From the NCBI GenBank assembly GCA_017134395.1, contig CP070993.1, positions 526,199 through 590,198 of the forward strand: a stretch of DNA of 64,000 nt, given 5' to 3'. Below are positions 345 to 41,969 of the stretch, in pieces (position 1 is the first letter of the stretch; the number at the start of each line of letters is the position of its first letter). The notes beneath the pieces were generated by a model that saw only the letters and a list, made by a program, of their open reading frames with translations, was not told where the DNA came from and ran no database searches. This DNA is from Candidatus Kaiserbacteria bacterium. Its GTDB lineage: Bacteria; Patescibacteriota; Minisyncoccia; Phycocordibacterales; UBA2100. The translations under genes were made by a program, and so were the position numbers.

Positions 345-1400
345 TTAGCGGACACGAACTCTATCTGCAAGTTCTGTAAGCGTTCGAGAGTCAGTTGTGA
401 TAGCGATGGCGTCATGCCCGATAAAAGCATACATTATACGGGCTACACCGTCTTCGTCATACAATATACGCACATCGATGTTGTCTATGACGGTGTCTTC
501 AAAGATGTTTGCTCCTGCTGCGATTGCTGGTTTTACAAATGATGAACGAGGACTAAAGAGAGGAAGTAAATCTTCCTCAATACTTTTTTCCCACGCGAGC
601 ATGCCTGCAAAAGCATGTCCATATGAGCGAGTGGTAAGCAAAAGGAATGGTGTATTTTCGTCAAGAACGTGGATACCGAGTACATAGTCTTCCGCGAGTG
701 TCTGTAGGAAGGTTATTGGAACTCGTGCTTGAATGGTTTCTAAAAAGTCTCTAGAACCTAGTCGTTCTATCGTTTCCTGCTCATCCTCTTCAGAAATCTT
801 TTCGGTGAGGTACAGCTCTACCATTGAACCAAGTGAGAAAAAAGTATTTCTTCGTACTGACGCGAGCAATTCTATTACATTTCGAGCTCGTACTCCGGTT
901 ACATCAACTCGCTCTTGCGCTTCGATGAAGATAAAGGATGAGGTAATTTGCTGTGTTGTAGGAGGGGCTGTATTAAGACGGTACGCATAATATGAACCTA
1001 AGGCAAATAAAGATGCAATGATAACGAATAAAATAGCTAGGAAAACAATCACCATCGTTTTTTTTGGTTCCTCTTCTATTTCTTCTCTGGGGCCGTCTTT
1101 TGCGCGTCGGTTGCTCTCCATTGCTGCAATGCGCGTTAGAGATGTTTTTTGGTCGCGCACCAGGTGTTGTATGTCATCTTTAAATGTATGAACAATCGCT
1201 TTGTTTTTTGAGGGTGCTTGCGTACGTATGCTCTCAGATTTCTGCACATCTGGCGCAGCTTTTAGAGGCTCAGGTGTTCCTTGTGTAGGTTCACTAGCTT
1301 CGTTTTTCTCCGTCGGTTTTTGGTTTTGATTCTGAGGCATGACGTTCGTTTGAAGTTGGTGGCATAACGCCCTTGTTTGATGCAAATTTTGGATCAACAT
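345..1400 (-). CDS. hypothetical membrane-anchored protein (low-complexity N-terminus, one TM helix, C-terminal extracytoplasmic domain); start uncertain because the ORF overlaps the pnp 3' end
   Basis: 351-aa ORF with a hydrophobic segment VIVFLAILFVIIASLFALGSYYAY; no family recognised; no clear SD at the candidate starts. Confidence 0.4.
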   Translation of the reverse strand: MLIQNLHQTRALCHQLQTNVMPQNQNQKPTEKNEASEPTQGTPEPLKAAPDVQKSESIRTQAPSKNKAIVHTFKDDIQHLVRDQKTSLTRIAAMESNRRAKDGPREEIEEEPKKTMVIVFLAILFVIIASLFALGSYYAYRLNTAPPTTQQITSSFIFIEAQERVDVTGVRARNVIELLASVRRNTFFSLGSMVELYLTEKISEEDEQETIERLGSRDFLETIQARVPITFLQTLAEDYVLGIHVLDENTPFLLLTTRSYGHAFAGMLAWEKSIEEDLLPLFSPRSSFVKPAIAAGANIFEDTVIDNIDVRILYDEDGVARIMYAFIGHDAIAITTDSRTLTELADRVRVR

Positions 1401-3465: not shown

Positions 3466-3618
3466 ACGTCATTATTGCGTGATGCCTAAATTTCAGTATT
3501 ACACAATGCTTGCTCGAAATATGTGTACCACTGTGATCTAAACACCACAATTATTTATAACTACTTCGAACTCTATCAAATTCTCACTGTAACTCAAACG
3601 GTGTGTTAGACTTTTTGT

Positions 3619-4200
3619 ATGAAACAACTGGTGCACATACACGGAGGTGAATGGTTTGATTCGTACGAGGAATACTTTAAGTATCTTGAGGCGTCTGAAA
3701 TAGATGATGTAAATGTGACACCCGTTCAAAAGTGGCGGGACCGGTATGAAGAATTTCTTGGTGCTGATTGGAGTATTATTCGCCCGCATATGCCTAGTCC
3801 CAAGAATGCAAAATACCTTGAATGGAAATTGTGGTTTGAAAAGTACATTCCTTATTTAGAAGACGGAGTTACTCTTGTTGGGCACTCACTTGGTGCTACA
3901 TTTTTAGCTCAGTATCTTTCAGAGAATACTCTCCTTAAAAATATACAGAGCCTTCACTTAGTAGCACCTGCTTTTGACGGGGCTGGAGGATTCGGATTAA
4001 CAGAGATGGTTAGTAACATACAAAAGCAAGTATCAAAGGTGTACCTATATCATTCTAAAGACGATTCACTTGTTCCCTACGAAGACTCTGTACATTTATA
4101 TGAATTGTTACCAGAGGCAGAATTTCTGCAGTTTGACGAAAGAGGTCATTTTCTGACGCCAGATTTCCCAGAGCTTTTTGAAAATGTTAAAAAAGCATAA
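3619..4200 (+). CDS. alpha/beta-fold serine hydrolase (YdeN/RBBP9-like esterase)
   Basis: 193 aa, nucleophile elbow GHSLGA, small-hydrolase size. Confidence 0.7.
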   Translation: MKQLVHIHGGEWFDSYEEYFKYLEASEIDDVNVTPVQKWRDRYEEFLGADWSIIRPHMPSPKNAKYLEWKLWFEKYIPYLEDGVTLVGHSLGATFLAQYLSENTLLKNIQSLHLVAPAFDGAGGFGLTEMVSNIQKQVSKVYLYHSKDDSLVPYEDSVHLYELLPEAEFLQFDERGHFLTPDFPELFENVKKA

Positions 4201-4228
4201 GAAAAAGCGGCCGTGAGGCCGCTTTTTC
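4201..4228. terminator. bidirectional intrinsic terminator between convergent genes
   Basis: aaaaagcggccgtgaggccgcttttt: GC stem flanked by A and T runs. Confidence 0.6.
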
Positions 4229-4243
4229 TATTGAACTAAACTG

Positions 4244-4783
4244 TTATCCGGTTATTCCGGGTATTTTCCAGTTGCGATGAGCAATGAGGTATTTCTTAGG
4301 GTCTTCATCCATATCTATAAAGTCGTCACAGACTTCACGGAGTTTTGATGATGAAGATTTACCAAAGCTAATAACCTCAACTTGCGTTCCTGAATGACGT
4401 TGGAGATATTCCACAAGTGGAATAAAGTCCCCGTCACCTGTTGCAAGTATGACGGCATCGAGCTTAGGTGCCATAGTAACGGCATCAATTGCCATGCCTA
4501 CGTCCCAATCGGCCTTCTTTGCACCACCAAAAAAGATTTGTAGATCTTTCGTAATGATTTCGATACCAAGCTTTTTCATAGCCTCAAAGAAGCTTTGTTC
4601 TTCGCCTGATTCCGTAGTAACCACATAGGCACGCGCTCGTATGAGCTGGCGTCCCGCAACACTTTCTTTCAAGACATTGTCGAAATTGACTTTCGCCTTG
4701 TAGATATTCTTTGCGCTGTGGTAGAGGTTTTGAGTGTCGATGAAAACACCGACACGTTGTTCTTTATGTTTAATAACTGACAT
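4244..4783 (-). CDS. NYN/LabA-like domain protein
   Basis: 179 aa; VGVFIDTQNLYHSAK … ILATGDGDFIPLV pattern of NYN/LabA PIN-like domains. Confidence 0.7.
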   Translation of the reverse strand: MSVIKHKEQRVGVFIDTQNLYHSAKNIYKAKVNFDNVLKESVAGRQLIRARAYVVTTESGEEQSFFEAMKKLGIEIITKDLQIFFGGAKKADWDVGMAIDAVTMAPKLDAVILATGDGDFIPLVEYLQRHSGTQVEVISFGKSSSSKLREVCDDFIDMDEDPKKYLIAHRNWKIPGITG

Positions 4784-5025
4784 AAAAATAGTTTCTTAAA
4801 AAATTACACTGAGTAAAAAATTCGACCAAACATATCAACAAAATCCATTCCGGAAGAAATGTATCCATTTTGCACAATTACTTGTTAAAAGTTTTTTAAT
4901 AATACATTGCATTATTTCGAAACTTTTAACTTCGTACTTGCACCAAAATTTTCATATTTCTTCTCGAAAGCAATTTTGCTGATATGTTGTGTATGTATCA
5001 TACAGTACGACTAACCAAGAATGCA

Positions 5026-5049
5026 AAAAGTGCACAAAAGTGCACTTTT
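5026..5049. terminator. intrinsic terminator downstream of rpsO
   Basis: perfect palindrome aaaagtgcac-aaaa-gtgcactttt. Confidence 0.6.
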
Positions 5050-5076
5050 ATAGGAGAGTTCTTTTTTATTTAAAAA

Positions 5077-5343
5077 TTACTTCTTTAATCCAAGTGCTTT
5101 TACGAGCTTGCCATATACTTTTGAGTCTTTGCTCTCAAGATACTTAAGGTGCTTGCGGCGATCCGCAACCATCTGTAGAAGACCTCGACGTGAGTGGTTA
5201 TCCTTATGGTTCTTTTTAAGGTGTGAAGCGAGTTCGTCGATACGTTTACTCAAAACTGCCACTTGTGCCTCTGGAGAACCAGTATCACCATCGTGTCGTT
5301 GTCCTTTTTTTAGAGCGTTAGCTTTTTGTCGTTTTGTAAGCAT
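5077..5343 (-). CDS. rpsO: 30S ribosomal protein S15
   Basis: MLTKRQKANALKK…GLLQMVADRRKHLKYL, 88 aa, canonical S15; pnp lies 1.6 kb away on the same strand with two genes between, a loose version of the usual rpsO-pnp linkage. Confidence 0.9.
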   Translation of the reverse strand: MLTKRQKANALKKGQRHDGDTGSPEAQVAVLSKRIDELASHLKKNHKDNHSRRGLLQMVADRRKHLKYLESKDSKVYGKLVKALGLKK

Positions 5344-5496
5344 GATATACACAAAATATGCCCGGTAATTGCTGTACGAGACAACATATCCGGACGTGAG
5401 ACAAATATAGCACAGTTTATATCTATTGGCAACCCCACCCCTCTCTTTTGCGGTTTGCGGGCATTATTACTCACTACTCATGATAAACTATGCATA

Positions 5497-6432
5497 ATGA
5501 GTTCTAGTCTCGAAAATAGTAAGCAAGAGTTCCTTGAATACCTAGAAATTGAGCGAGGGCGTGCTGTGAAGACAGTTGAAAACTATGATCGATACCTTGT
5601 TCGTTTTTTTGACCACACCAAAGTAAAGAACCCGAAAGATATAACTGAAACAAAAGTACGAGAATTCAGGCTTTGGCTTAACAGGCAAGTTACCCAAAAT
5701 GGAACAACAGTAAAGCGTAGAACACAAAACTATTATTTAATTGCTATTCGTGCATTTTTAAAGTTTTTACGAAAACGCGGTATCACGAGTCTTTCTCCTG
5801 AGCGTATTGAATTAGCAAAAGTTTCTCAGCGTGATCTTGATTTAATCACACGTAAAGAACTTCAGCGTCTTCTGGCTGCGCCAATGCGGGCGTATGAAGA
5901 GAGCGAAGATGAAGCAGTTAAATTACGGGCTATTCGTGACAATGCGATGTTACAACTCTTGTTTTCAACAGGCCTTCGTGTTTCAGAACTAACCTCACTA
6001 AATAGCGATATTGATCTTTCGAAAGATGAAATGTCAGTACGCGGTAAGGGTGACAAAGTGCGTGTTGTATTCTTTTCGCCCGAAGCAAAAAAAGCAGTTC
6101 AGAGATATTTAGATGAACGAAAAGATTTAGATGAAGCCCTGTTTGTAAATATGGGTCGCAACGCGAGCGAACACAATGATTTACGTCTTACTCCAAGAAG
6201 TGTGGAACGTGCAGTCAAACACTATGCAACTCGTGCTGGCATTACAAAAACAGTTACACCGCATGGCTTACGGCACAGTTTCGCAACCGATTTATTACAA
6301 AATGGAGCCGACATTCGTAGCGTGCAGGCACTACTTGGGCACGCTAATATTGCAACCACTCAAATATACACACACGTTACGGACAAACACCTTAAGGACA
6401 TTCACAGTAAGTTTCACAATAAAGGAAAGTAA
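5497..6432 (+). CDS. tyrosine site-specific recombinase, XerC/XerD type
   Basis: C-terminal catalytic motifs HGLRHSFATDLL … LLGHANIATTQIYTHV; N-terminal SAM-like domain (FLEYLEIERGRAVKTVENYDRYL). Confidence 0.85.
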   Translation: MSSSLENSKQEFLEYLEIERGRAVKTVENYDRYLVRFFDHTKVKNPKDITETKVREFRLWLNRQVTQNGTTVKRRTQNYYLIAIRAFLKFLRKRGITSLSPERIELAKVSQRDLDLITRKELQRLLAAPMRAYEESEDEAVKLRAIRDNAMLQLLFSTGLRVSELTSLNSDIDLSKDEMSVRGKGDKVRVVFFSPEAKKAVQRYLDERKDLDEALFVNMGRNASEHNDLRLTPRSVERAVKHYATRAGITKTVTPHGLRHSFATDLLQNGADIRSVQALLGHANIATTQIYTHVTDKHLKDIHSKFHNKGK

Positions 6433-6460
6433 AACGTCGAGGATGGTATCCTCGACGTTT

Positions 6461-6811
6461 TCATTTCTCGTCATGCAATAATTTTTGTAAGTGCTCGATC
6501 ACCTCTTGTGGGCACGTACGTACATCGTTTAAGAAAGTACTCAAAACCTTTTGAACTGTTTCTGGATCTCCAGGATATGCACTTTCAAATAGTGCTTTCT
6601 CGTGTACTCCGTAAAGGTGAGACACCTCATCAAACAGTGCGTTTATTTGCATGCATTTTTCTCGCTGACGTTTAGTTAGGGTTGGTCGCGGTTTTATACC
6701 AAAGACCTTCTCAAACTCCTTACGAGATAGACGCCCGTATTTCTTCATAAGGTCTCCTTTCTTCTGGTGCGAGTGTGCCATGAAACAGAAAGGTGCACAA
6801 TGTGATAGCAT
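6461..6811 (-). CDS. hypothetical protein
   Basis: ORF only; basic N-terminus; no family recognised. Confidence 0.3.
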   Translation of the reverse strand: MLSHCAPFCFMAHSHQKKGDLMKKYGRLSRKEFEKVFGIKPRPTLTKRQREKCMQINALFDEVSHLYGVHEKALFESAYPGDPETVQKVLSTFLNDVRTCPQEVIEHLQKLLHDEK

Positions 6812-6817
6812 TCTGAC

Positions 6818-7627
6818 ATGAGAATTGTTTCATGGAATGTAAACGGACTGCGAGCAGTGCATCGAAAAGGAAACTGGAATGACGTTTTTGCACTTAAGCC
6901 TGATGTTCTTTGTTTACAGGAAATAAAAGCACAAAAAGATCAGTTGCCTGATGATGTTACCGAAGTCGATGGGTTTCATGCGTACTTTAATTCATCACAA
7001 ACAAAGAAAGGTTATGCGGGTACAGCTTTGTACTCGAAAAGGAAACCGCTAAACGTTTCATATGGTTTACCAGACGATATAACTGAGAAACATAGTTTAC
7101 TTACTGATGGATATGGAGAGCCAAACAGAGAAGGGCGCGTGATAACAGCAGAGTTTCCTGAGGTTTTCGTAGTAACAGTGTATACACCTAACACCAAAGA
7201 TGATCTTTCGCGCCTTGAATTACGCCACAAACATTGGGACCCAGCGTTTCTCGAGTACTGTGTAACATTACAAAACAAGAAACCGGTCATATTCTGTGGT
7301 GATTTGAATGTTGCACACAAACCAATTGATCTCGCACGTCCTAAGGAAAATGAGGGGAATAAAGGCTTCACAGTACAAGAACGACAAGGAGTAGATAATA
7401 TGATAGAGGAGGGTTTCATAGACACACTGCGCATGTTTTTTGCTGATACCAAGGATTTATATACGTGGTGGAGTCCATGGAACGGTGCACGAGATCGTAA
7501 TGTTGGATGGCGCATTGATTACGTATTTGTGAGTGAGCAGTTAGAAGACATAGTGCAACATGCAGATATACATCCAGATATACACGGGTCTGACCACTGC
7601 CCGGTGTCGCTAGACGTAGAAATCTAA
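6818..7627 (+). CDS. xth: exodeoxyribonuclease III (AP endonuclease)
   Basis: MRIVSWNVNGLRA…LCLQE…; C-terminal GSDHCPV motif. Confidence 0.9.
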   Translation: MRIVSWNVNGLRAVHRKGNWNDVFALKPDVLCLQEIKAQKDQLPDDVTEVDGFHAYFNSSQTKKGYAGTALYSKRKPLNVSYGLPDDITEKHSLLTDGYGEPNREGRVITAEFPEVFVVTVYTPNTKDDLSRLELRHKHWDPAFLEYCVTLQNKKPVIFCGDLNVAHKPIDLARPKENEGNKGFTVQERQGVDNMIEEGFIDTLRMFFADTKDLYTWWSPWNGARDRNVGWRIDYVFVSEQLEDIVQHADIHPDIHGSDHCPVSLDVEI

Positions 7628-7725
7628 AGGACATTTTATAAAGGACAAATGTCCTTTAGCTCTAACGGACATTTATCCACAAGGACATAGAAAATGTCCT
7701 TTATACATTGTATAATGTCCGATAG
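7625..7725. repeat. GGACAT/ATGTCC palindromic repeat module, copy A
   Basis: taaaggacatttt / ataaaggacaaatgtcctttag / ctctaacggacattt / aaggacatagaaaatgtcctttat / taatgtccgat; same block as at 10410-10511 and 11930-11997. Confidence 0.7.
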
Positions 7726-7992
7726 ATCGTTCTTTAGGATAAAGTTAAGTTCTTTTCCGTTCTTTATAGTGTCTTCATGTGTTGTAAACAAAACAAAAAA
7801 CACACACAAACTCCGTACAATATGCGTACACACGATGTGAAATCGTTTACGTATAAACAAGGAACACTTTCCTTGTTAAAACAATCAGCACGGTAGGCAC
7901 AAAAAATAAGCAAAAACCACCTCTGGGAAGCCTTGAGGATTCGCACAGAAAAAACCGCGAATCAACAAATATAGCGTATCACCCACATTATC

Positions 7993-8016
7993 GAGACCGC
8001 CTTTAGGCGGTTTTTG
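7993..8016. terminator. intrinsic terminator-like hairpin
   Basis: gagaccgcctttaggcggtttttg. Confidence 0.5.
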
Positions 8017-8022
8017 CGTACT

Positions 8023-8060
8023 AAAAATCCTCCGCTTAGTTTTCTAAGTGGAGGATTTTT
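8023..8060. terminator. intrinsic terminator downstream of cca (bidirectional hairpin)
   Basis: aaaaatcctccgcttag-tttt-ctaagtggaggattttt. Confidence 0.6.
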
Positions 8061-8064
8061 AGAG

Positions 8065-9528
8065 CTAGGATACGTGATGCTTTTTTCGAAGCGCTTCTAT
8101 TTCTTTTTCGTCCTCTTCTTCCCTTCTGTCTTTTCCTTTTTCTCCAAGTTTTTGTAACTCGTTTATTGGCAATTGAGCTAATTCAGCAGCCCTGTCTTCA
8201 AGGTATTCAGGGGTGTTTTGTTTTGGCTCATCAAGAACCTCTTCAAGAAGTGCATGGAGTATCCATCCTACTTTTGGTCCTGGCCCGTCACCTAATATTT
8301 CAATAATTTTGTCGCCATTAATTTTGAGCATAGCAACTGAAATAGGATCACGAAGCGCTTCGTCAACCATGGATTTGTATTTGCGAAAACGAAATGGTTG
8401 TTCTTTTGGCCGGCCCGTACCAATGCGATCGCAGGTGCGTAATTCAAGCAGTTCCTGAATGTGGTCAACTCCAACATTTTGTATCATTCGACGAACTGCA
8501 CTGAGAGTTATTTGGTCAGGGTCGGAGAAAAACATATGCCAACGGACGAGCTTCTCTACGTTGTGTGCAGTATCTTTTGGAAATTTCAAGTCTCTTAATA
8601 TTTTGCGTGTCATACGCGCTCCAATAACTTCGTGCCCATAGAATGTGTAATCATTTTTTACTGTGTCACGACGTCGGCTTTCTGGTTTCCCTATGTCGTG
8701 TAGTAATGCAGCAAGGCGTACATCAAAAGAATAGTTTTTGTCTGCGGCATGCTGTAGGCTGCGCATAAGGTGTTCGAACACATCGTATGAATGCGCTTGG
8801 TTTTGCTCACATCCAATACCCTCTTTGAGTTCAGGAATGATGTATTCCATTAATCCTAAGCGTTGTGCAAAAAATACTGCCTGCATCGGCGTGTCTGATG
8901 CAACGATTCGCATGAGCTCGTCTCGTACGCGTTCTTGAGAAACTTTTTCAATAAGCTGCGCATGCTCTGCTATTGCCGAGGCAGTTTTTGATTCGATTGT
9001 GAAGTTGAGCTCAGCTGCAAGGCGTATTGCACGCATCATACGTAGTGCGTCCTCTGTAAAACGATCTGTAGCTTCCCCGACAGTAACAATACGTTTTAAT
9101 CGTATGTCCTCTACCCCTTTATATGGGTCTACAAGCTCGTCGCGCGTTGGATTGTATGCTATGGCATTCATCGTGAAATCACGTCGCTGTAGGTCGTCTG
9201 TGAGATTCTTGCTAAATGTTACTTCATCAGGATGGCGCGCGTTGCTGTATGTTGATTCGATTCTATAAGGGGTCACCTCGACCACTTTGAGCGTGGGGTC
9301 GTCAGACTCCGTTTTTACACCGACAGTCCCAAAATCATTTTCATAGAAAGAATCAGGAAATATTTTTTGAATTTCCTCAGGGTTAGCGTTTGTAGTAAGA
9401 TCCCAATCTTTAGGAATCTTGTTGCGTATAAGATCGCGCGTACAACCCCCTACGAGGTATGCTTCGAAACCAGCATTCTCTAATGTCGTAACAATGGTAA
9501 GAACTTCTTGCGGTACAGAGTGTCTCAT
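8065..9528 (-). CDS. cca: CCA-adding tRNA nucleotidyltransferase (pol-beta NTase head plus HD domain)
   Basis: N-terminal GGCTRDLI… NTase motif, HD motif LLHDIGK; 487 aa. Confidence 0.85.
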   Translation of the reverse strand: MRHSVPQEVLTIVTTLENAGFEAYLVGGCTRDLIRNKIPKDWDLTTNANPEEIQKIFPDSFYENDFGTVGVKTESDDPTLKVVEVTPYRIESTYSNARHPDEVTFSKNLTDDLQRRDFTMNAIAYNPTRDELVDPYKGVEDIRLKRIVTVGEATDRFTEDALRMMRAIRLAAELNFTIESKTASAIAEHAQLIEKVSQERVRDELMRIVASDTPMQAVFFAQRLGLMEYIIPELKEGIGCEQNQAHSYDVFEHLMRSLQHAADKNYSFDVRLAALLHDIGKPESRRRDTVKNDYTFYGHEVIGARMTRKILRDLKFPKDTAHNVEKLVRWHMFFSDPDQITLSAVRRMIQNVGVDHIQELLELRTCDRIGTGRPKEQPFRFRKYKSMVDEALRDPISVAMLKINGDKIIEILGDGPGPKVGWILHALLEEVLDEPKQNTPEYLEDRAAELAQLPINELQKLGEKGKDRREEEDEKEIEALRKKHHVS

Positions 9529-9586
9529 TGCTCAATTGTAGTACACCTATTGCTATGAAGCGAATATACCGTATGATTGCCAACAC

Positions 9587-9658
9587 GCACCCGTGGTGAA
9601 ATGGATATCATTACGGTCTTCGGAACCGTCGTTGGGGGTTCGAGTCCCTCCGGGTGCA
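9587..9658 (+). tRNA. tRNA-Arg (anticodon TCG), no encoded CCA
   Basis: hand-folded cloverleaf: acceptor GCACCCG/CGGGTGC, D-stem GTGA/TCAT, anticodon stem ACGGT/ACCGT with loop CTTCGGA, T-arm GGGGG-TTCGAGT-CCCTC. Confidence 0.8.
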
Positions 9659-9723
9659 CAAATGGCCGCCCACAAAGCATTGCTTTGTGGGCGTTTGCCA
9701 TTTCCACACCCGGAGGGACTCGA
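9639..9723. repeat. ~85-bp imperfect palindrome containing the tRNA-Arg 3' end and its inverted copy around an inner hairpin
   Basis: ttcgagtccctccgggtg…cgcccacaaagca|ttgctttgtgggcg…cacccggagggactcgaa; also makes mirrored artefact ORFs on both strands. Confidence 0.75.
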
Positions 9724-9948
9724 AAAGAGTCGTCGGTATACAAGATAATGAAGCGAAGCGAAATTAGGCTTGTCGGCGACGTCGGGGCAGCGAGTACTTA
9801 GCAAGGCCGCAGCCGAGCTTAGTACTGGCGCCGAGTCCCCACTTTGTAAGAGGTCATGAAGGCGTCAGGAAAATTATTCGTGACCGAGTCCCTCCCCCAC
9901 TTCACAAAATTGCACCACGCCTAATTTGATATATAATCACTCTCACTT

Positions 9949-9977
9949 GCGGCTATATGAAACAAGCATATAGCCGC
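9949..9977. repeat. hairpin formed by a copy of the first 9-11 nt of tRNA-Gly(GCC) and its complement
   Basis: gcggctatatg-aaacaag-catatagccgc; tcaCttgcggctata here versus tcaTttgcggctata at the real tRNA 5' end (10104-10118). Confidence 0.6.
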
Positions 9978-10109
9978 GGCGTTCAGACACAATGTCTACG
10001 CAAAGCGCATTGATGTCCCCCGATTTCACGTTCTTGTAAGCGAGCTTCCAGAAACATGAAATCGGAGCACATCTTTCTGCAAAATGCAGAAGCGCTCTGC
10101 TCTTCATTT

Positions 10110-10180
10110 GCGGCTATAGTTTAGTGGTATGACACGTCCTTGCCAAGGATGAGACGGGAGTTCGATTCTCCCTAGCCGCA
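10110..10180 (+). tRNA. tRNA-Gly (anticodon GCC), no encoded CCA
   Basis: acceptor GCGGCTA/TAGCCGC, anticodon stem CGTCC/GGATG with loop TTGCCAA, T-arm GGGAG-TTCGATT-CTCCC. Confidence 0.9.
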
Positions 10181-10181
10181 C

Positions 10182-10228
10182 AAATACACAGAAAGACTAG
10201 GTTCTCGCCTAGTCTTTCTGTGTATTTA
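10182..10228. terminator. hairpin immediately after tRNA-Gly
   Basis: aaatacacagaaagactagg-ttctcg-cctagtctttctgtgtattt (20-bp arms). Confidence 0.6.
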
Positions 10229-10350
10229 GGCATTGTGCATAGAGAATCGAAAGACGGAAGCCTGCGTGCCTAAGCACGAGTAAGGGCTGAGTCCGGCCTG
10301 GAGCACTTAGTAGAATTAAGCCTGAAAGGCGCAAATTATACTTAGTGACT

Positions 10351-10372
10351 GGAGGCGATTCTCCCTAGAAAA
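10351..10372. repeat. partial direct copy of the tRNA-Gly(GCC) T-arm and 3' end
   Basis: ggaggCGATTCTCCCTAGaaaa shares the 13-mer cgattctccctag with tRNA-Gly 10163-10175. Confidence 0.6.
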
Positions 10373-10409
10373 CTGACCAATTCTGGCCAGTTTATACTCG
10401 GAAGGTTTT

Positions 10410-10511
10410 TTAAAGGACAAAATTTGTTGATAACTCTGGGGATAGGTGGATAAAGGACATTTCTAACGGACATAAAAATGTCCGTTATCCCCAAAAATGT
10501 CCTTTATCAAC
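10410..10511. repeat. GGACAT/ATGTCC palindromic repeat module, copy B
   Basis: taaaggacaaaattt … ataaaggacatttctaacggacataaaaatgtccgttat … aaaaatgtcctttatc. Confidence 0.7.
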
Positions 10512-10608
10512 AGACTTATGAACAGTTTTATCTTATTTGTGCACATTTGTGTTTCATAAGAAACAATATGAACTTTTCCTAGTATTAGAGCCATTTAACT
10601 CTTCCACA

Positions 10609-10628
10609 TGTTTTCACGTGAAAACATA
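10609..10628. repeat. TTTCACGTGAAA palindromic unit (copy 1)
   Basis: atgttttcacgtgaaaacat, a 20-bp palindrome with a CACGTG core. Confidence 0.7.
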
Positions 10629-10747
10629 GAGAAGATTTAGGACAAGAATGGATGTTGAGGGTGTGAAACAAGCGGGTTCAAAATGACATATTTTCTCTAT
10701 TTTTGCACGTTTGGCCCTAGTTAGTGTGACTTACTGTACTTATTAGT

Positions 10748-10764
10748 ATTTCACGTGAAACTAT
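10748..10764. repeat. TTTCACGTGAAA palindromic unit (copy 2), abutting the 3' end of the K+ channel gene
   Basis: atttcacgtgaaactatg. Confidence 0.7.
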
Positions 10765-11549
10765 GAAGTGAGTGAAGAATGCTTGTGTTTAACTGGCTCA
10801 CCACAGTGTTTACATCGGATTGCGTCGATATCATGAGCGCTTAAGCCACAATTTGGGCATGTATAGTGCACTTTTGCCCCATGAAATATAGTTCTCGTAA
10901 GTTGCAAAAAGAGGGTAATACCTATAAGCATAGCCACCACAGAGAGCATTTTGCCCCACGGTCCTGCAGCTGTGACGTCACCATAGCCAGTTGTTGTAAG
11001 GGTGGAAACAGTGAAGTATAGTGCATCAAGGTAGGAATTTATATGTGGATTGAATTGTGCTTCAGCAACAAAGACTATGGCTGTCATTATTGCGAGAAAC
11101 ACAAAGAAGTTGAGTAGACTTTCAAGAGTTGCGCTGTATTGGTAGATAGTTTTGCTCTCTTTTTTGGCTAAATTCACCAAGTAGTAGGTGCGAAGGATCT
11201 TGAGTGAGCGCAAAACTCGCAAAAGTGCCAAGTTTCCTACCAAAAGTGGTGCAAAGAGTGAGACAATGACTAAAATATCTATTACGCTAAAGACGTTAAA
11301 GACAAACGAGAGCCTTCGGGGTGAAATCCATAAGCGCGCAAGATACTCTAAGAGGAAAAGAGTACCAAATACAATTTCCAGCACCTTCGTGAAAGAATGT
11401 CCTGGATTTGCAGCTTCTAATAGGAAAATGCCAAAAACTGCTACGTTTAAGAGGATAAGCACCCGGTTAAAGATAATGCTTTTACGAGTGCGCTTGTGAA
11501 AGAGAGTAGTGAGTTGCTTTTTTACTTTGGGAAAAGAACTTTTCTTCAT
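10761..11549 (-). CDS. voltage-gated-type (6TM) potassium channel with C-terminal zinc-ribbon
   Basis: K+ selectivity filter TLTTTGYGDVT; S4-like LALLRVLRSLKILR with arginines at every third position; C-terminal CPNCG…CKHCG. Confidence 0.85.
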   Translation of the reverse strand: MKKSSFPKVKKQLTTLFHKRTRKSIIFNRVLILLNVAVFGIFLLEAANPGHSFTKVLEIVFGTLFLLEYLARLWISPRRLSFVFNVFSVIDILVIVSLFAPLLVGNLALLRVLRSLKILRTYYLVNLAKKESKTIYQYSATLESLLNFFVFLAIMTAIVFVAEAQFNPHINSYLDALYFTVSTLTTTGYGDVTAAGPWGKMLSVVAMLIGITLFLQLTRTIFHGAKVHYTCPNCGLSAHDIDAIRCKHCGEPVKHKHSSLTS

Positions 11550-11562
11550 TACAATATGCTAG

Positions 11563-11580
11563 CATAGTTTCACGTGAAAT
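11563..11580. repeat. TTTCACGTGAAA palindromic unit (copy 3) in the 32-bp divergent intergenic region
   Basis: catagtttcacgtgaaat directly upstream of the yraN ATG, next to palindrome atgctagcat. Confidence 0.7.
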
Positions 11581-11581
11581 C

Positions 11582-11968
11582 ATGAGTAGAAACAAAGATA
11601 TTGGGAATACTGGAGAGCACATAGCCGCACGTTTTTTAGAGACGAAGGGGTTTTCTATTTTAGGTAAGAATTACAGCAAGAAATGGGGTGAACTCGACAT
11701 TATTGCTAAGAAAGAAGGAGTAGTGCATTTTGTGGAAGTAAAAACAATTTCACGTGAAACTCAAAACATAGTTTCACGTGAAAATAATTCTGCGTATAGA
11801 GCGGAAGAGAATATGCATAAGAAAAAGATAGAGCGTTTACATAGGGCTATTCAGAGTTATATAGAGGAGTTCAATGTAAAAGAGGATTGGCAGTTAGATT
11901 TAGTGACTGTAGTTCTTTTTATAAAGGACAAAAAAGCTGAGTGTCGATTTGTAGAAAATGTCCTTTAG
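11582..11968 (+). CDS. yraN: YraN-family (UPF0102) endonuclease-like protein
   Basis: EHIAARFLETKGFSILGKNY…GELDIIAKKEGVVHFVEVK; contains an in-frame tandem insertion of the palindromic unit. Confidence 0.75.
   Translation: MSRNKDIGNTGEHIAARFLETKGFSILGKNYSKKWGELDIIAKKEGVVHFVEVKTISRETQNIVSRENNSAYRAEENMHKKKIERLHRAIQSYIEEFNVKEDWQLDLVTVVLFIKDKKAECRFVENVL
11747..11785. repeat. two tandem TTTCACGTGAAA units (copies 4 and 5) inside the yraN coding sequence
   Basis: atttcacgtgaaactcaaaacatagtttcacgtgaaaat, translated in frame as ISRETQNIVSREN. Confidence 0.75.
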
Positions 11969-11997
11969 ATTATAAAGGACATTCTTACGGACATTTT
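11930..11997. repeat. GGACAT/ATGTCC palindromic repeat module, copy C (overlaps the yraN 3' end)
   Basis: ataaaggacaaaaaa … gaaaatgtcctttagattataaaggacattcttacggacatttta. Confidence 0.7.
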
Positions 11998-12150
11998 AAA
12001 TAGAGAATTCAGTGCTGCACAAGATAATAAAGAGACTCAGACCTATGATCTAATATATTGGAAGAATGAAGAAATGTGTGCAATAATGCCCCCGACCCAA
12101 AAGCACTCATTGTTTCATTAGTGTTCGTAACTGAATGGGTCATACGCTAT

Positions 12151-12224
12151 CGGGGCGTAGCATAGTGGTAGTGTACTCGCTTTGGGAGCGAGCGGTCCGA
12201 GTTCGATTCTCGGCGCCCCGACCA
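12151..12224 (+). tRNA. tRNA-Pro (anticodon TGG) with encoded CCA
   Basis: acceptor CGGGGCG/CGCCCCG, anticodon stem CTCGC/GCGAG with loop TTTGGGA, T-arm CCGAG-TTCGATT-CTCGG, 3' ACCA. Confidence 0.9.
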
Positions 12225-12236
12225 AAATCTTAAAGT

Positions 12237-12260
12237 CCATGCGCAGCATGGGCTTTTTAG
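12237..12260. terminator. intrinsic terminator after tRNA-Pro
   Basis: cccatgcgcagcatggg followed by cttttt. Confidence 0.6.
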
Positions 12261-12535
12261 ATTCTAATTTGTATATCTGCAGTAGAGAAACTTGACAGTA
12301 TTATGGCTGGCAGTATCTTATATATATGCACGTGAACATACATAAGATTATATTTCTGAATCTGATTGGTCTCAGCGAGGCATCTGTGTGGGTACGAGTA
12401 TAAATATAAAAAATTTTAAACTCAAGCACCCGCACAAAGCGGGCTTTTTGTTTGGTTTTTCAGTCAGTGTATATAACGTTTTGGTATGTACTGACTGGGG
12501 AAGCAATGAGGCTTTTTCAGAAAAAGGAGGTCAAT

Positions 12536-12721
12536 ATGACCGAAAGAGAACGACATTCGGAGGACCCCGTCCTAACCACCAATGGGATTGATGGTATGAG
12601 TGAGGGGGATGAATTGGACAAACCCAACGAAAATACTGCGCCTGTAGTACATAAATTGGGATGGGATCCGGAAGAGCCGGGTGAGAATCTTTCAGACAAA
12701 CGCTGTCGTTTAGGCGGCTGA
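12536..12721 (+). CDS. small acidic hypothetical protein (61 aa)
   Basis: strong SD AAAGGAGG 6 nt before the ATG; followed by a terminator at 12730-12768; sequence MTERERHSEDPVLTT…. Confidence 0.45.
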   Translation: MTERERHSEDPVLTTNGIDGMSEGDELDKPNENTAPVVHKLGWDPEEPGENLSDKRCRLGG

Positions 12722-12729
12722 ACCTTCTG

Positions 12730-12768
12730 CGAGCGTGGCGGAGACATCTCTGTCACGCTCGTTTTATA
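12730..12768. terminator. intrinsic terminator
   Basis: gcgagcgtg-gcggagacatctctgtc-acgctcg plus tttt. Confidence 0.6.
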
Positions 12769-13945
12769 TTGGGAAGTAGGGGAGTAGGTTTGGTACAGTA
12801 GTTTCTCCAAACTCCTGTACACGATTTTCAAAGTCACCGATATTTAGAAAGGATAAGAGAGTATTTCCGGTGTGTATTTGCAGACTTCTATCAATATGCG
12901 AAAGAGTGAGCGCACGCAAGTCGCGCTCTGCTGTAGTATTTCCTACACTGCTGGTCACAATAATTCCAACCAATTTGTTCCATTGGTTCATTACTGCTCC
13001 GCCTGAGGACCCACCTTGAGCAACGATTGTCCCACCAAGTGATAGAATATCGATGAGAGCTTCTGAGAACGTATACACTTTCTGTATTTCTACTGTTGTC
13101 GATACCGGCCAGAGGCCTCGTTGTAAGAGCGCGCTACCTAGAAAGCCTGCTGGATAACTAGCGAGTAATACAGGATCATTCATTGTGGTAACTGCTTCTC
13201 GTGTGTCGAACGATACGAAAGGAAAAGTGAGCGGCTTTTCAGTCCCGTCTGTAGTACCAGTTATGTAGAGAAGCGCCCAATCATGTTCTCCAGTTCCTGT
13301 TGGTGTCTCCAATTGTAAATCTTTGCCATGATTTTGTGCCCACATATACGGGAAAGTAAGTATCTCAGCAGTGTATTTTGTTTTGGCGGGGGATCCAGAG
13401 CGTATAACACACGAAATAATGGCGTTAGGGTGCTCTTTCACTAGCAAATATTGTGCCACATGTGCGTTGGTAAGAATTACTCCTCGTGGATCGATTATAA
13501 TCCCGCTACCTATTGCGCCAGATACAGACGAACCAGGTGTGCTAGCACAGAGTATGTTTACTAAGGCAGGGGAGGAGACAGTATTTACAACTTCTAAAGG
13601 AAGCGGTGGAGTTTCGTAAAATGAAGGTGTCGGAGTCGGTGCCTCTATGATTGGCGAAGTGACTATAATTTCTGATTCGATAATTATTTCGGGAGTGATC
13701 TCTACGCCAGCTGGCAGATTTATATGCTCCGACTCTATTTGTGGCTCTTGTAATACAGCAGGTTCTTCAATTAGCTCTTCATCAACTACAAGAGTCGCAC
13801 TTTGCTCTATTGAGCTTATTACGGCACCTTGTTGCGTGTATCCAGGTATAAACGTAGAAACGGCTAATAACGTAGCAGTGGCTACACTGGCTAGGAATAG
13901 ATAGATTGTAGTAATAAGGCTCTCTAACATGCCGATAGCATACAC
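12764..13945 (-). CDS. trypsin-like (S1 family) serine protease with N-terminal membrane anchor
   Basis: catalytic His context ILTNAHV, serine motif GGSSGGAV, N-terminal TM/signal segment. Confidence 0.75.
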   Translation of the reverse strand: MYAIGMLESLITTIYLFLASVATATLLAVSTFIPGYTQQGAVISSIEQSATLVVDEELIEEPAVLQEPQIESEHINLPAGVEITPEIIIESEIIVTSPIIEAPTPTPSFYETPPLPLEVVNTVSSPALVNILCASTPGSSVSGAIGSGIIIDPRGVILTNAHVAQYLLVKEHPNAIISCVIRSGSPAKTKYTAEILTFPYMWAQNHGKDLQLETPTGTGEHDWALLYITGTTDGTEKPLTFPFVSFDTREAVTTMNDPVLLASYPAGFLGSALLQRGLWPVSTTVEIQKVYTFSEALIDILSLGGTIVAQGGSSGGAVMNQWNKLVGIIVTSSVGNTTAERDLRALTLSHIDRSLQIHTGNTLLSFLNIGDFENRVQEFGETTVPNLLPYFPI

Positions 13946-14090
13946 GTGCTTGAGCTTGAGAGCCAGTCTGGTAGTATGTGCCTTGTCCTAATAAGACATG
14001 TGGGCGTAGTTACGTGCAAAATAACTATCCCACAACAGCCTTGCTGTTGTAGATTCGGGTAGTGGACACAGTAGAAGGGTAGAGATAATT

Positions 14091-14161
14091 GCGGGTGTAG
14101 TTAAGTGGTATAACAACAGCCTTCCAAGCTGTGGTCGGGAGTTCGATTCTCCCCACCCGCA
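14091..14161 (+). tRNA. tRNA-Gly (anticodon TCC), no encoded CCA
   Basis: acceptor GCGGGTG/CACCCGC, anticodon stem ACAGC/GCTGT with loop CTTCCAA, T-arm GGGAG-TTCGATT-CTCCC. Confidence 0.9.
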
Positions 14162-14571
14162 CATTAGAAGACAGCTACATTGATTTCAGAGAAGACCCTT
14201 GTAACTAGCGGTGGATTTCACTGGAATGTTCGAGTGTATAAGACAGTACGTACGTGGTGCTCGTAATATGTAGAGCTAGAGCCTTTTGAAAGTTCGAGAA
14301 GTTGCCAACTCTTGGGGGCATTGCTGTTCGTATACTGCTATTCCAATGGTAGCTCGTTCTCATCTTTGTCTTTCCACGGCCACGAATTCTCTCGTTCCAT
14401 GCGTTCATATTCACGCGTACACAGCAAAAAGTACTGTTCAAGTTCTGGTGGCAAGTTGCTCTCATTTTCCATAGAGACATGATACCGCATTAATTCTATT
14501 TCGATATTTTTCAGCAACTAATAAAGAAAACCCAGTCACCGTTAAGTGTCTGGGTTTTATGGCGGAGCCAA

Positions 14572-41936: not shown

Positions 41937-41969
41937 CATCTCTCTATTCTCGGCACATTGCTTTGTCGA

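Follow-up and report, generated by a model that had tools for sequence, protein, structure and literature searches.

A palindrome at a tRNA-Arg gene joins it to a recurrent module linked to tRNA 3′ ends in Patescibacteria

We show that an 85-bp palindrome at the end of a tRNA-Arg gene, in the 64,000-nucleotide (64 kb) stretch of DNA analysed here (the window), marks where that gene meets one copy of a recurrent module associated with tRNA 3′ ends. The module is an apparently undescribed, small folded DNA or RNA unit that lies behind many Patescibacteria tRNA genes, and a literature search found no description of such a module. Two copies of the 3′ end of whichever tRNA it accompanies, one inverted and one direct, always frame it. 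We propose, with a probability of about 0.5, that the modules are small (130–230 nt) non-autonomous insertion elements that target the segment of tRNA genes from the T-loop to the 3′ end. Alternatively, the modules may act as cis-acting or tRNA-like RNAs.

The palindrome at tRNA-Arg

The tRNA-Arg gene (anticodon TCG) occupies positions 9587–9659 of the forward strand, ending at 9659 or 9658 (ARAGORN; Rfam tRNA model, 59.7 bits). CCA is not encoded, and the discriminator A is position 9658. An 18-mer from this gene, TTCGAGTCCCTCCGGGTG, occurs exactly twice in the 64 kb, at 9639–9656 (+) and at 9707–9724 (−). There are no further matches in the window with up to three mismatches allowed, and none of 100 dinucleotide shuffles contained two matches. 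A previous, sequence-only reading had described an inverted copy of the last 19 nt of the tRNA at 9706–9723. The copy is real and exact, but those coordinates are off by one, and the string is 18 nt long and ends 2–3 nt short of the tRNA end.

The palindrome is also longer than that reading saw. Its arms, 9639–9666 and 9697–9724, are 28 nt each and 89% complementary, and they include seven trailer bases (AAATGGC/GCCATTT). The left arm, which we call A (9639–9666, +), runs from T-loop position 54 to the tRNA 3′ end plus 7 trailer nt (CAAATGGC). The right arm, A′ (9697–9724, +), is the inverted copy of A and contains the exact 18-mer at 9707–9724. Read as GAGGG-ACTCGAA, it corresponds to the 3′ T-stem strand and the T-loop in reverse complement. 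We rejected the idea that A′ is a direct copy of the tRNA 5′ strands, since a direct copy would read GGGGG-TTCGAGT.

The interval between the inverted copies is itself a hairpin, as had been proposed, with a perfect and terminator-like 13-bp stem (9667–9693, +; arms 9667–9679 and 9681–9693) followed by TTTGCCATTT. The suggested folding of the tRNA and its trailer returned a strong structure for 9587–9740 (−88.8 kcal/mol, z = −9.1). In this predicted fold, and likewise in that of 9587–9912, the palindrome displaces the acceptor and T arms. Both of the mirrored open reading frames previously ascribed to the symmetry are present (9553–9804 on the minus strand, 83 aa, and 9577–9801 on the plus strand, 74 aa). 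They are produced by the palindrome and can be regarded as spurious, because neither has a Pfam match and both overlap the tRNA.

Is this simply a terminator? Long perfect hairpins with A-run and T-run shoulders are the ordinary intergenic style of this genome, with at least 20 in the 64 kb, and the tRNA-Gly and tRNA-Pro genes have hairpins of their own in the same style. The earlier suggestion of a terminator or processing signal suits the inner 13-bp hairpin with its TTTGCCATTT tail (5 T in 10), which a consensus terminator scan does not call, but it leaves the outer arms unexplained. The feature as a whole is not the stem, loop and tail of a terminator: its 28-nt arms copy the tRNA and run into the module.

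A module framed by copies of the tRNA end

Operationally, we define the module by the order A, hairpin, A′ ending in TCGAA, conserved core and A2, located downstream of a tRNA gene and co-oriented with it. A is the tRNA from T-loop position ~54–56 to the 3′ end, plus a few trailer nucleotides. The hairpin between A and A′ is strong and usually terminator-like. A′ always spans the T-loop and the 3′ T-stem strand, and only sometimes the acceptor strand and the trailer. The core is conserved and about 100 nt long. In class 1 it forms a three-way junction with the motifs GAA-(N)G-N-C-GGAG, CGAG-N-C-N-GGG and GGTCGCG...CGTGACC, and a second core class carries RTACTG and a CTGTAAG loop. A2 is a direct copy of A, and the pairing of A′ with A2 closes the fold of the module.

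The tRNA-Arg locus has this order (9639–9666, 9667–9693, 9697–9724, 9725–9884 and 9885–9895), and so does a second copy at the tRNA-Gly gene of the window. The covariance model R1, built from 12 copies, identifies a class-1 three-way-junction core with a 65-nt insertion at 9709–9904 (+; 30.4 bits, E = 8.5e-8). The match begins at 9709, and A′ doubles as the 5′ strand of the closing helix, P1. The MFE fold of 9660–10109 pairs 9712–9722 with 9885–9895 (z = −8.2). The sequence-only reading had advised a search for partial tRNA copies farther along, and direct copies are indeed found, at 9885–9895 and 10356–10368 in the window and in 41 cases in relatives. At tRNA-Arg there are two partial direct copies that the reading lacked. 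A2-2 (9885–9909, +) is the 3′ strand of P1 and opens with CGAGTCCCTCC (9885–9895), identical to tRNA positions 9641–9651 at 11 of 11 nucleotides. It is preceded by a conserved GTGAC, and it continues as diverged sequence to CACAAAA, where the tRNA trailer has CACAAAT. A2-1 (9832–9842, +) is a degenerate copy of the T-loop/T-stem segment (CGAGTCCCCAC, 82%) at the end of a first core unit, and the sequence before it, GGGCAGCGAGTACTTAG...GCTTAGTACTGGCGC, is similar to the Pro/Gly-type cores of loci L011 and L001. The module as a whole looks like about 1.5 decayed tandem units. Its A′ is unusually long and pristine, with a decayed core (9725–9884) and a decayed A2 (9885–9895). Beyond A2 lies an 11-bp hairpin (GCGGCTATATG/CATATAGCCGC; 9949–9977, +), evident in the sequence and in the MFE fold. 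In most modules of relatives a hairpin lies directly 3′ of A2, and by analogy this one may be the displaced original terminator of the tRNA.

The tRNA-Gly gene (GCC; 10110–10181, +; ARAGORN and Rfam) lies 450 nt downstream and is followed directly by a perfect, terminator-like 20-bp hairpin (10182–10227, +). Its module, at 10236–10375 (+), has a class-1 core that scores 88.5 bits with R1, a value inflated because this copy is a seed member of the model. A′ is GAGAATCGAA at 10242–10251, and A2 is CGATTCTCCCTAG at 10356–10368, which matches the tRNA at 13 of 13 positions. A hairpin with A/T shoulders (10370–10393, +) comes directly after this A2. There are no open reading frames in 9660–10109 or 10182–10400.

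In the window and 160 related Paceibacteria loci together, R1 matches 77 copies, two in the window and 75 in relatives. Two complete genomes, CP174359.1 and CP066682.1, are among those sampled, through loci L006 and L009. Of these, 71 lie less than 500 nt, and mostly 25–85 nt, downstream of a tRNA-Arg, Gly or Pro gene on the same strand; given the space that these regions take up, about six would be expected. At 23 of the 25 base pairs the 57 copies compared show compensatory changes, and 91% of cells are paired, although these pairing counts are inflated by the fitting of the alignment (A3) to the model. The covariation score is 0.587, against 0.176 in shuffles (reached in 0 of 500) and about 0.05 in slid controls. 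Helix 1 has compensatory changes in all 8 pairs across tRNA types, and the inverted arms vary with the tRNA, reading ACTCGAA or ATTCGAA for Arg and AATCGAA with a specific T-stem for Gly and Pro. G-U pairs outnumber A-C pairs by 63 to 33 overall and by 31 to 12 in the inner helices, an excess that points to folding of the tRNA-sense strand.

The direct repeats can be seen independently of the model. For 437 tRNAs we searched for copies of the last 18 nt and found 41 direct and 6 inverted copies downstream and none upstream; the middle 18 nt of these tRNAs gave no copies at all. The direct copies, at 41 of the 437 tRNAs of relatives, sit 52–365 nt downstream. The repeats run from tRNA position 53–56 to 0–4 nt past the tRNA end, and many are exact over 19–23 nt. 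The shared trailer bases are weak evidence for duplication at the DNA level, because a CAAA trailer is common to tRNAs here. A class-1 module is present at only about 16% of these tRNAs. In about half of the modules a T-run terminator separates it from the tRNA, which argues against obligatory co-transcription.

Searches against known families returned little. At the gathering threshold, only tRNA models of Rfam match the window, and a search of 9400–10900 with Rfam 15 at E ≤ 10 gave nothing credible, the only tmRNA match scoring 7 bits. Six loci with intact modules, searched at E ≤ 0.5, yielded only tRNAs and noise. Neither ARAGORN nor Rfam finds a tRNA or tmRNA, permuted forms included, on either strand of 9660–10109. 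In the 160 loci the modules have no linked transposase, integrase or reverse transcriptase, and no free or circular form of the module was seen. The only recombinase gene nearby, for a tyrosine recombinase (5326–6432), was considered as the integrase of the element and rejected, as it is a syntenic core gene that is present with or without modules. A scan of IMG/VR viral contigs for the core pattern gave ten matching stretches, all at 17 bits or less and none beside a tRNA, and the two that we inspected (L166 and L167) look like chance matches. A blastn search of both trailers against phages and plasmids found no match.

Turnover in relatives and the origin of the modules

The order of the CCA-enzyme gene, tRNA-Arg, tRNA-Gly and tRNA-Pro is conserved in relatives, and the interval is free of genes. 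The proposal of an integration scar is partly supported: a direct repeat of the tRNA 3′ end does lie downstream, but the locus is not the border of an island or variable region. It had also been suggested that an identical palindrome at the same tRNA in related genomes, with conserved flanks on both sides, would speak for a pure terminator; the comparison gave neither of the expected outcomes. Genome and metagenome scans gave best relatives with 79% and 77% amino-acid identity, too distant for a strain-level pair of empty and occupied sites. The closest, L001 (79% in a flanking gene), has no palindrome and a different terminator at this tRNA, yet a decayed module is present there. The more distant loci L022, L107, L150 and L153 carry analogous palindromes made from their own tRNA sequences.

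Modules also differ between relatives. The tRNA-Pro of L001 has a pristine module where the window has none, and the tRNA-Gly modules of the two are of differing subtypes, with the window Gly core being 74% identical to the L001 Pro core. The flanks beyond tRNA-Pro, compared in search of an empty site, could not be aligned between the window and L001. In L151, CGATTCCCCGCTCCCCGACAA occurs in three exact copies that separate two cores of different subtype, and every copy has a terminator of its own behind it; arrays are likewise found in L158, L107, L066, L056 and L150. Relative to L042, with which it shares 79% nucleotide identity, L158 has an extra unit of ~230 nt. This unit lies between tRNA-Gly and an older unit shared by both loci, it is bounded by repeats that are identical at 19 of 19 positions, and the A2 of the older unit is decayed. 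The difference could equally be a deletion between direct repeats. In L013, the tRNA-Pro and tRNA-Gly modules share 89% of aligned core columns from GAATCGAA to GTTGTAG, barring one 57-nt insertion, and their P1 arms are tRNA-specific; this likeness could reflect gene conversion. With the exception of L013, copies within a genome are generally not near-identical (mean core identity 53%), and so there is no sign of a recent burst. L027 and L160, at 90% nucleotide identity, have kept the junction motifs while every hairpin arm has been replaced, a pattern that looks like purifying selection on a function.

We find that insertion elements fit best, because the modules are patchily present and form tandem arrays with the newest unit by the tRNA, and because one related genome has an extra unit bounded by exact repeats. 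Such an element would enter a tRNA gene at the T-loop and, in the manner of an att site, would either duplicate the stretch between the T-loop and the 3′ end or bring a copy of it along. Each element would bring its own terminator and thereby leave the tRNA gene intact, with new units landing next to the tRNA and older ones pushed downstream. The inverted copy A′ and the covarying fold suggest that the active form is single-stranded, either ssDNA or RNA of the tRNA-sense strand. The A′:A duplex would stand in for the double-stranded target, much as the folded CTXphi attP and integron attC do, and if a single strand were exchanged during integration, the order A, A′, A2 would be precisely the outcome. 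On this view the long perfect palindrome of the window would have arisen secondarily, when A′ was extended or homogenised against the neighbouring tRNA end. More tentatively, we speculate that the modules are protein-less, tRNA-homing mobile elements of 130–230 nt, whose folded single-stranded att site is capped by a three-way junction and which are mobilised by a host recombinase or an RNA-level step. A possible alternative is a riboswitch-like device on the 3′ side of the tRNA that governs how the upstream tRNA folds, with strand invasion starting at the T-loop.

Several rival explanations have to be weighed against the insertion element. Could the module act as RNA? An unlikely answer is a cis-acting switch or checkpoint on tRNA maturation, in which A′ pairs either with A, leaving the tRNA misfolded, or with A2, closing the core. 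The core would then be a ligand- or protein-binding domain that chooses between the pairings, with the T-loop complement TCGAA as a toehold for strand invasion. Such a switch accounts for the equality of A2 and A, for the way A′ tracks each tRNA, for the constant downstream place on the same strand, and for the conserved unpaired junction nucleotides and strong covariation of the core. It is in keeping with the G-U bias towards the sense strand, with the junction motifs kept by L027 and L160 as their arms turn over, with the lack of a separate terminator between A and A′ in L022, L107 and L150, and with the prediction that A:A′ in the window is thermodynamically better than the cloverleaf. However, where the terminator ahead of the module is a canonical A-run, stem and T-run, as in about half of the copies, A′ would rarely be co-transcribed. 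A device found at so few of these tRNAs, and gained and lost at orthologous ones, is hard to see as a checkpoint; tandem arrays of identical units of 88 nt or ~200 nt are hard to square with regulators, and A2 or A′ is decayed in many copies, both of those in the window included. We think it quite unlikely that the module is instead an independent gene for a tRNA-derived small RNA, a tRNA-like molecule whose acceptor/T-stem stack has been copied from the neighbouring tRNA. Its parts would be an acceptor complement, a small hairpin, a T-stem complement, the core, a T-stem and an acceptor strand, so that a domain of ~100 nt replaces the T-loop, and it would be processed by RNase P, RNase Z and the CCA-adding enzyme. 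The type-(b) copies L031, L092, L160, L027, L066, L018 and L150 do give a cloverleaf-like outline, running from acceptor complement through a GC hairpin (CTGC or TGGG loop) to T-stem complement. The fold is backed by covariation, and A2 ends like a tRNA with the discriminator (and CCA where encoded), followed by a terminator. Against this, the acceptor complement is wholly absent in many copies (for example the window Gly module, the L001 Pro module and L006), and pairing does away with the T-loop, the chief element by which the tRNA elbow is recognised. The space between the terminator and A′ is too short for a promoter; no consistent −10 box is found there, and a generic scan performs at chance level. 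Patchy distribution and decaying copies also count against such a gene, and ARAGORN and Rfam do not see the modules as tRNA- or tmRNA-like.

Three explanations remain. The fused attL and attR arms of larger, integrase-borne elements, phages or integrative elements (a CIME-like scar of integration and excision), would produce direct repeats from the T-loop to the tRNA end, tandem accretion and an element-carried terminator, as in T-loop-type att sites. We nevertheless regard this as improbable. Deletions that arose independently would not all end in one covarying fold from A′ to A2, shared by dozens of species and four tRNAs. An inverted core copy is foreign to a double-stranded attP and to classical integration, none of the copies seen had cargo or an integrase (inserts reach about 600 nt at most, in L053), and the pattern scan of IMG/VR found none. 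Two further readings have very little to recommend them. One is a long bidirectional terminator or processing palindrome that is unrelated to any module and owes its growth to chance or to template-switch 'correction' of a quasipalindrome. Palindromes are known to lengthen by template switching, which probably accounts for an A′ that is longer and cleaner in the window than in L001; the inner hairpin also has the form usual for terminators here, a long perfect stem. As a complete explanation, we disfavour it: the right arm ends in TCGAA and gives way to a core recognised by the model, a matching direct copy follows after 160 nt, further tRNAs and genomes show the same frame, built in each case from the sequence of the tRNA concerned, and the outer arms lie outside the T-run and add nothing to termination. 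The other, a remnant of a tail-to-tail inverted tRNA duplication, seems just as remote. It would be an intermediate of the in-place flips of single tRNAs that this neighbourhood displays, in which 83 of 427 tRNAs are individually flipped with gene order kept, and an aborted or decayed one would leave a partial inverted copy beside the tRNA. Yet A′ always halts at the T-loop and is followed by the conserved core rather than the rest of the tRNA, A2 is left unexplained, and flips show no significant association with modules (odds ratio 1.67, p = 0.13).

Relation to known systems and significance

The 3′ ends of tRNA genes are classic landing sites for integrases, and to our knowledge the elements that use them carry their own recombinase. 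Williams reportedly described, in 2002, a T-loop class of tRNA att sites with direct repeats that run from the T-loop to just beyond the tRNA end. The modules resemble such sites, used by tyrosine-integrase elements (e.g. ssrA- and tRNA-linked islands), in their 18–23 bp direct repeat from the T-loop past the tRNA end, in the restoration of the tRNA gene on insertion, and in arrays with the newest unit by the tRNA. Direct repeats bound both inserts of the window, with identity at 11 of 11 positions between 9641–9651 and 9885–9895 and at 13 of 13 for 10356–10368. The modules differ in that the insert is only 130–230 nt, without an integrase or cargo, and in that they have an inverted core copy and a covarying three-way junction, the att copy being a strand of the closing helix. 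No integrase and cargo between the repeats, and no full-length relative, was found in the window, the 160 loci or viral contigs.

Folded single-stranded recombination sites are known from CTXphi, whose attP(+) is used by XerCD, and from integrons, whose attC is used by IntI. In these systems, as in the module, a single strand that contains an inverted copy can fold on itself and form a target-like duplex: the module has two inverted core copies, and both A′:A2 and A:A′ pair. By analogy with the published mechanisms, a single strand exchange would give a target, an inverted and a target copy, the order A, A′, A2, and the branched terminal structure of the module recalls the variable terminal structure of attC. 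That said, the target would be a tRNA gene rather than dif or attI, no cassette ORF is seen, and the module core has a conserved junction sequence unlike the attC loops. MITEs, REPINs, Correia, RUP and BOX elements are comparable in being non-coding, about 100–200 nt long, folded into long hairpins, patchy and sometimes tandem. The modules, in contrast, keep strictly to tRNA 3′ ends and to the orientation of the tRNA, the sequences of their inverted termini come from the specific target tRNA instead of being constant in the family, and their copies within a genome are not near-identical. There is no short fixed target-site duplication; the duplicated segment is 18–23 nt of the target tRNA.

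The inner 13-bp hairpin with its T-rich tail and the 20-bp tRNA-Gly hairpin resemble rho-independent (bidirectional) tRNA terminators, whereas the outer arms copy 18–28 nt of the tRNA and run, outside the stem and T-run, into the core. Likewise, A′:A2 corresponds to the acceptor stem of the neighbouring tRNA stacked on its T stem and ends with the discriminator, as tRNA-like domains and minihelices do (the tmRNA TLD, viral TLS and YrlA). In the module, however, the T-loop sequence is paired in P1, so that there is no cloverleaf with a T-loop; the core takes its place and there is no D-loop partner. The acceptor part is often absent, and tRNA and tmRNA models are blind to the module.

Paceibacteria (Patescibacteria) have tiny genomes with little room for junk. 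The modules explain unannotated tracts of 0.2–0.6 kb beside tRNA genes in these genomes, and they yield spurious mirrored open reading frames. They also create long palindromes, which may affect assembly and replication near what seems to be the origin. If mobile, the modules would rank as the smallest known insertion elements that target tRNA genes, and folded single-strand att sites would no longer be limited to dif and integrons. As RNA devices, they would represent a new way to couple a structured RNA to a tRNA.

The palindrome behind tRNA-Arg

The gene for tRNA-Arg(TCG) lies on the plus strand at 9587-9659. The segment that begins in its T-loop and reaches the last-but-one acceptor base, TTCGAGTCCCTCCGGGTG (9639-9656), has a single further exact occurrence in the 64 kb, which is inverted and located at 9707-9724; two matches were found in 0 of 100 shuffles. 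The sequence-only reading had reported such an inverted copy as part of an 85-bp palindrome. The copy is real, although its coordinates were one base off and the exact string is 18 nt long, not 19. The complementarity also extends further than was noted, with arms of 28 nt (9639-9666 and 9697-9724, 89% complementary) that reach 7 bases into the trailer and flank a perfect 13-bp hairpin (9667-9693). When the tRNA and its trailer are folded as RNA, as that reading had proposed, the palindrome displaces the acceptor and T arms (-88.8 kcal/mol, z = -9.1). The mirrored ORFs it described on both strands do exist; they have no Pfam match and are artefacts.

We use A for the tRNA segment from the T-loop to the 3′ end with a few trailer nucleotides, A′ for its inverted copy and A2 for its direct copy. 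The A′ of tRNA-Arg reads GAGGG-ACTCGAA and is a genuine reverse complement of the 3′ strand; direct copying of the 5′ strand, which would give GGGGG-TTCGAGT, is rejected. Two direct copies had been missed, CGAGTCCCTCC at 9885-9895 and a degenerate one at 9832-9842. The spacer at 9660-10109 (450 nt) is gene-free and strongly structured (z = -8.2), and in its MFE fold the inverted copy at 9712-9722 pairs with the direct copy at 9885-9895. The same arrangement is found behind tRNA-Gly(GCC) (10110-10181). Here a perfect 20-bp hairpin follows directly (10182-10227), then A′ as GAGAATCGAA (10242-10251), the complement of this tRNA's own T-loop and T-stem, a structured stretch, and A2 as CGATTCTCCCTAG (10356-10368), a direct copy of the T-loop and T-stem with the first acceptor bases.

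Long perfect hairpins are ordinary in this genome, with at least 20 in the 64 kb, and the window holds 34 inverted pairs of at least 14 nt within 120 nt. Intergenic hairpins of 16-32 bp, often perfect and with A-run/T-run shoulders, are common (e.g. 20008-20075, 41968-42028 and 55098-55137); these are presumably bidirectional terminators. None of the four tRNA genes in the window encodes a full CCA (stretches inspected: 9657-9666, 10180-10187, 12221-12230 and 14160-14166). The bases that come next are CAAAT at Arg and Gly(GCC), CCAAAAT at Pro (CC, then A-rich) and CATTAG at Gly(TCC).

Upstream of tRNA-Arg and divergent to it, only 58 nt away, lies the gene for the CCA-adding enzyme (8065-9528, minus strand), whose relatives are Patescibacteria labelled Paceibacteria, Kaiserbacteria or Parcubacteria. 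Our comparison set consists of 80 genome and 80 metagenome loci around this gene (L001-L160); the closest relatives share 79% (genome) and 77% (metagenome) protein identity, no identical protein was found, and comparisons are therefore above strain level. Because the order CCA gene, tRNA-Arg, tRNA-Gly(GCC), tRNA-Pro, tRNA-Gly(TCC) is conserved, the spacer does not mark the boundary of a variable island. Single tRNA genes are flipped in place among relatives (e.g. L006, L008, L003, L009, L011 and L057; window region 9587-14162), with the order Arg, Gly, Pro, Gly retained. Relative to the CCA-enzyme gene, 83 of 427 tRNAs have the flipped orientation; L006 has all three flipped, each on its own, and tail-to-tail Gly/Arg pairs 11-48 nt apart occur in several genomes.

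The neighbourhood has a further feature. Four DnaA-box-like 9-mers (TTATCAACA, TTATCCACC, TTATCCCCA and TTATCAACA again) are arranged symmetrically within 88 nt at 10425-10512, and the repeated motif AAAGGACA/TGTCCTTT forms inverted pairs there and at 7625-7711, the latter adjoined by a perfect TTATCCACA at 7673. Cumulative GC skew over positions 1-12000 has its minimum at about 5-10 kb. This region is probably the replication origin, directly next to the tRNA genes. In L158 the tRNA-Gly module is likewise followed by a similar motif, GTGGATAAAGGACA.

A recurrent module at tRNA 3′ ends

How general is this arrangement? Among 437 tRNAs, allowing at most 2 mismatches and counting only copies outside any tRNA, the last 18 nt of the tRNA recur 41 times in direct orientation downstream (median +141 nt), 6 times inverted downstream and never upstream; the first 18 nt recur 5 times and the middle 18 nt never. 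The direct repeats start inside the T-loop (tRNA position 53-56), end 0-4 nt past the tRNA and are in many cases exact over 19-23 nt. From tRNA to repeat the order is fixed: a strong hairpin, A′, a conserved core and A2. A′ consists of the inverted T-loop and 3′ T-stem strand, with the TCGAA end in every case. Upstream of it there is either an ordinary A-run/stem/T-run terminator, or an acceptor complement that mirrors the tRNA acceptor strand and trailer to give a long palindrome (L013-Gly, L075); in L092 and L160 a small GC hairpin separates the acceptor and T-stem complements. In the window an inner hairpin of terminator type occurs together with a contiguous A′ (18+7 nt), and analogous palindromes, each from its own tRNA sequence, are found in L022, L107, L150 and L153.

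The first-18-nt copies are the sole non-3′ fragments found. They are direct, lie 30-63 nt upstream of their own tRNA, mostly Pro, and are located at L007 2175-2192, L044 446-463, L054 1889-1906, L066 2735-2752 and L061 2744-2761. Some tRNA-Pro genes also carry direct repeats of another kind (L020 2748-2898, exact over 32/32 nt; L007 1949-2118; L044 7-414; L051), which run from about position 40-47 in the variable region with a period of 80-153 nt, without A′ or core. These may be a separate class of integration or duplication.

RNAalifold on 12 aligned copies gives 25 pairs, 18 with compensatory changes. The class-1 fold consists of P1, the A′:A2 helix; a junction GAA-(N)G-N-C and then GGAG / hairpin / CGAG, with possible tandem G-A pairs; a third helix, GGTCGCG...CGTGACC, stacked directly on P1; and variable hairpin tips. 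R1, a covariance model of this core built from the same number of copies, finds 75 more in the 160 loci, or 77 with the two in the window. The latter are the Gly copy (88.5 bits, a seed member) and the Arg copy (9709-9904, 30.4 bits, E = 8.5e-8), with no further R1 match in the window. Nearly all copies (71 of 77) have a tRNA on the same strand less than 500 nt upstream, in most cases at 25-85 nt, and the class-1 module is present at only about 16% of these tRNAs. In an alignment of 57 copies, which was itself fitted to R1 and should be read with that caveat, 91% of cells are paired, 23 of 25 pairs show double changes, and the alignment scores 0.587 for covariation, compared with 0.176 for shuffles (0/500) and about 0.05 for slid controls. 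G-U pairs exceed A-C pairs (63:33 in total, 31:12 within the inner helices), which points to the tRNA-sense strand as the one that folds. The palindrome behind tRNA-Arg is shown to be the tRNA-proximal edge of one copy of this module, which recurs in association with tRNA 3′ ends and covaries.

A second, unrelated core occupies the same A / A′ / A2 frame in L018, L042, L048, L053, L107 and L150, in the order A′-GAA, long hairpin, RTACTG, short stem with a CTGTAAG loop, A2. Neither core has a match in Rfam 15. In L107 (4400-4800, minus strand) the second core is repeated in tandem as three identical 88-nt units, with T-arm-like hairpins, TTCGAATCC-CGCC-AGGATTCGAA, where they join, and in L150 (300-640) two identical units of about 200 nt. 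Possible remnants in the window are TTTGTAAGAG (9843-9852) and TCTTGTAAGC (10033-10042).

Insertion and turnover

Behind tRNA-Pro in L151, CGATTCCCCGCTCCCCGACAA occurs in three exact copies, each followed by its own terminator, that separate two cores of different subtype; arrays are also found in L158, L107, L066 and L056. Compared with L042 (79% nucleotide identity), L158 has one extra unit of about 230 nt between tRNA-Gly and a shared older unit. Its bounding repeats are 19/19 identical and the A2 of the older unit is decayed. This fits insertion at the tRNA-proximal copy, though L042 may instead have lost the unit through deletion between direct repeats.

Between the window and its closest relative, L001, a pristine tRNA-Pro module is present in L001 only, and the Gly modules are of different subtype, the window Gly core being 74% identical to the L001 Pro core. 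At tRNA-Arg, the terminator of L001 is a different one, its A′ is short (CGGGACTCGAA), and both its core and its A2 have decayed (35 bits). An A′ that is extended and pristine is thus peculiar to the lineage of the window. We infer that palindrome correction or gene conversion extended or homogenised it against the neighbouring tRNA end.

Cores within a genome are usually dissimilar (mean identity 53%). In L013 the Pro and Gly modules, on opposite strands, have 89% of aligned core columns in common; the shared stretch runs exactly from GAATCGAA to GTTGTAG, one 57-nt insertion aside, and the P1 arms are tRNA-specific, which indicates transposition or gene conversion. A comparison that bears on selection acting on the core is that of L027 (2200-2592) and L160 (1-357). 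At 90% nucleotide identity in the flanking DNA, they retain the junction motifs and acceptor complement, and every trailer or module hairpin arm is unrelated sequence of the same shape. The arms replaced are those of the terminator, small GC hairpin, P2 and P3, and they are hypervariable or swapped. The largest insert seen in the frame, about 600 nt between tRNA-Arg and module in L053 (430-1335, minus strand), holds degenerate tRNA 3′-end copies and, read by eye, an apparent opposite-strand reading frame of about 65 aa.

What the modules may be

In the window, no ORF lies within the module-bearing intervals (9660-10109 and 10182-10400). With a probability of about 0.5, we interpret the modules as small non-autonomous insertion elements that target tRNA genes between the T-loop and the 3′ end, in the manner of T-loop-class att sites, and bring along a replacement terminator. 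More speculatively, and by analogy, the fold and the presence of an inverted copy suggest that the active form is single-stranded. An A′:A duplex would imitate the double-stranded target, as the folded single strand of CTXphi attP or integron attC does, and integration via single strand exchange would predict exactly the observed order A - A′ - A2. No associated enzyme was found; the tyrosine recombinase at 5326-6432 was considered and rejected, since its gene is conserved and syntenic and occurs in 51 of 80 long loci. Phages and plasmids yielded no copies of the module, nor did a pattern scan of IMG/VR.

A cis-acting switch, with A′ pairing in turn with the 3′ half of the tRNA and with A2, would account for the pairing partners and is nonetheless doubtful, as terminators lie between the tRNA and A′ in about half of the copies. 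That the modules are genes for tRNA-derived small RNAs is unlikely, and it is quite improbable that they are scars left by integrase elements of the classical kind. We see very little chance that the palindrome is a mere overgrown terminator. Its origin as a remnant of an inverted tRNA duplication, tied to the in-place flips, is equally remote, the flips showing no significant association with modules (OR 1.67, p = 0.13).

The combination was not found in Rfam 15 or in full-text searches of the literature, although such searching cannot prove novelty. Its parts have known counterparts in att repeats at tRNA genes, folded att sites, MITE-like hairpins and terminators. As a whole, namely protein-less, with tRNA-specific inverted and direct target copies around a conserved three-way junction, the combination does not resemble known systems.
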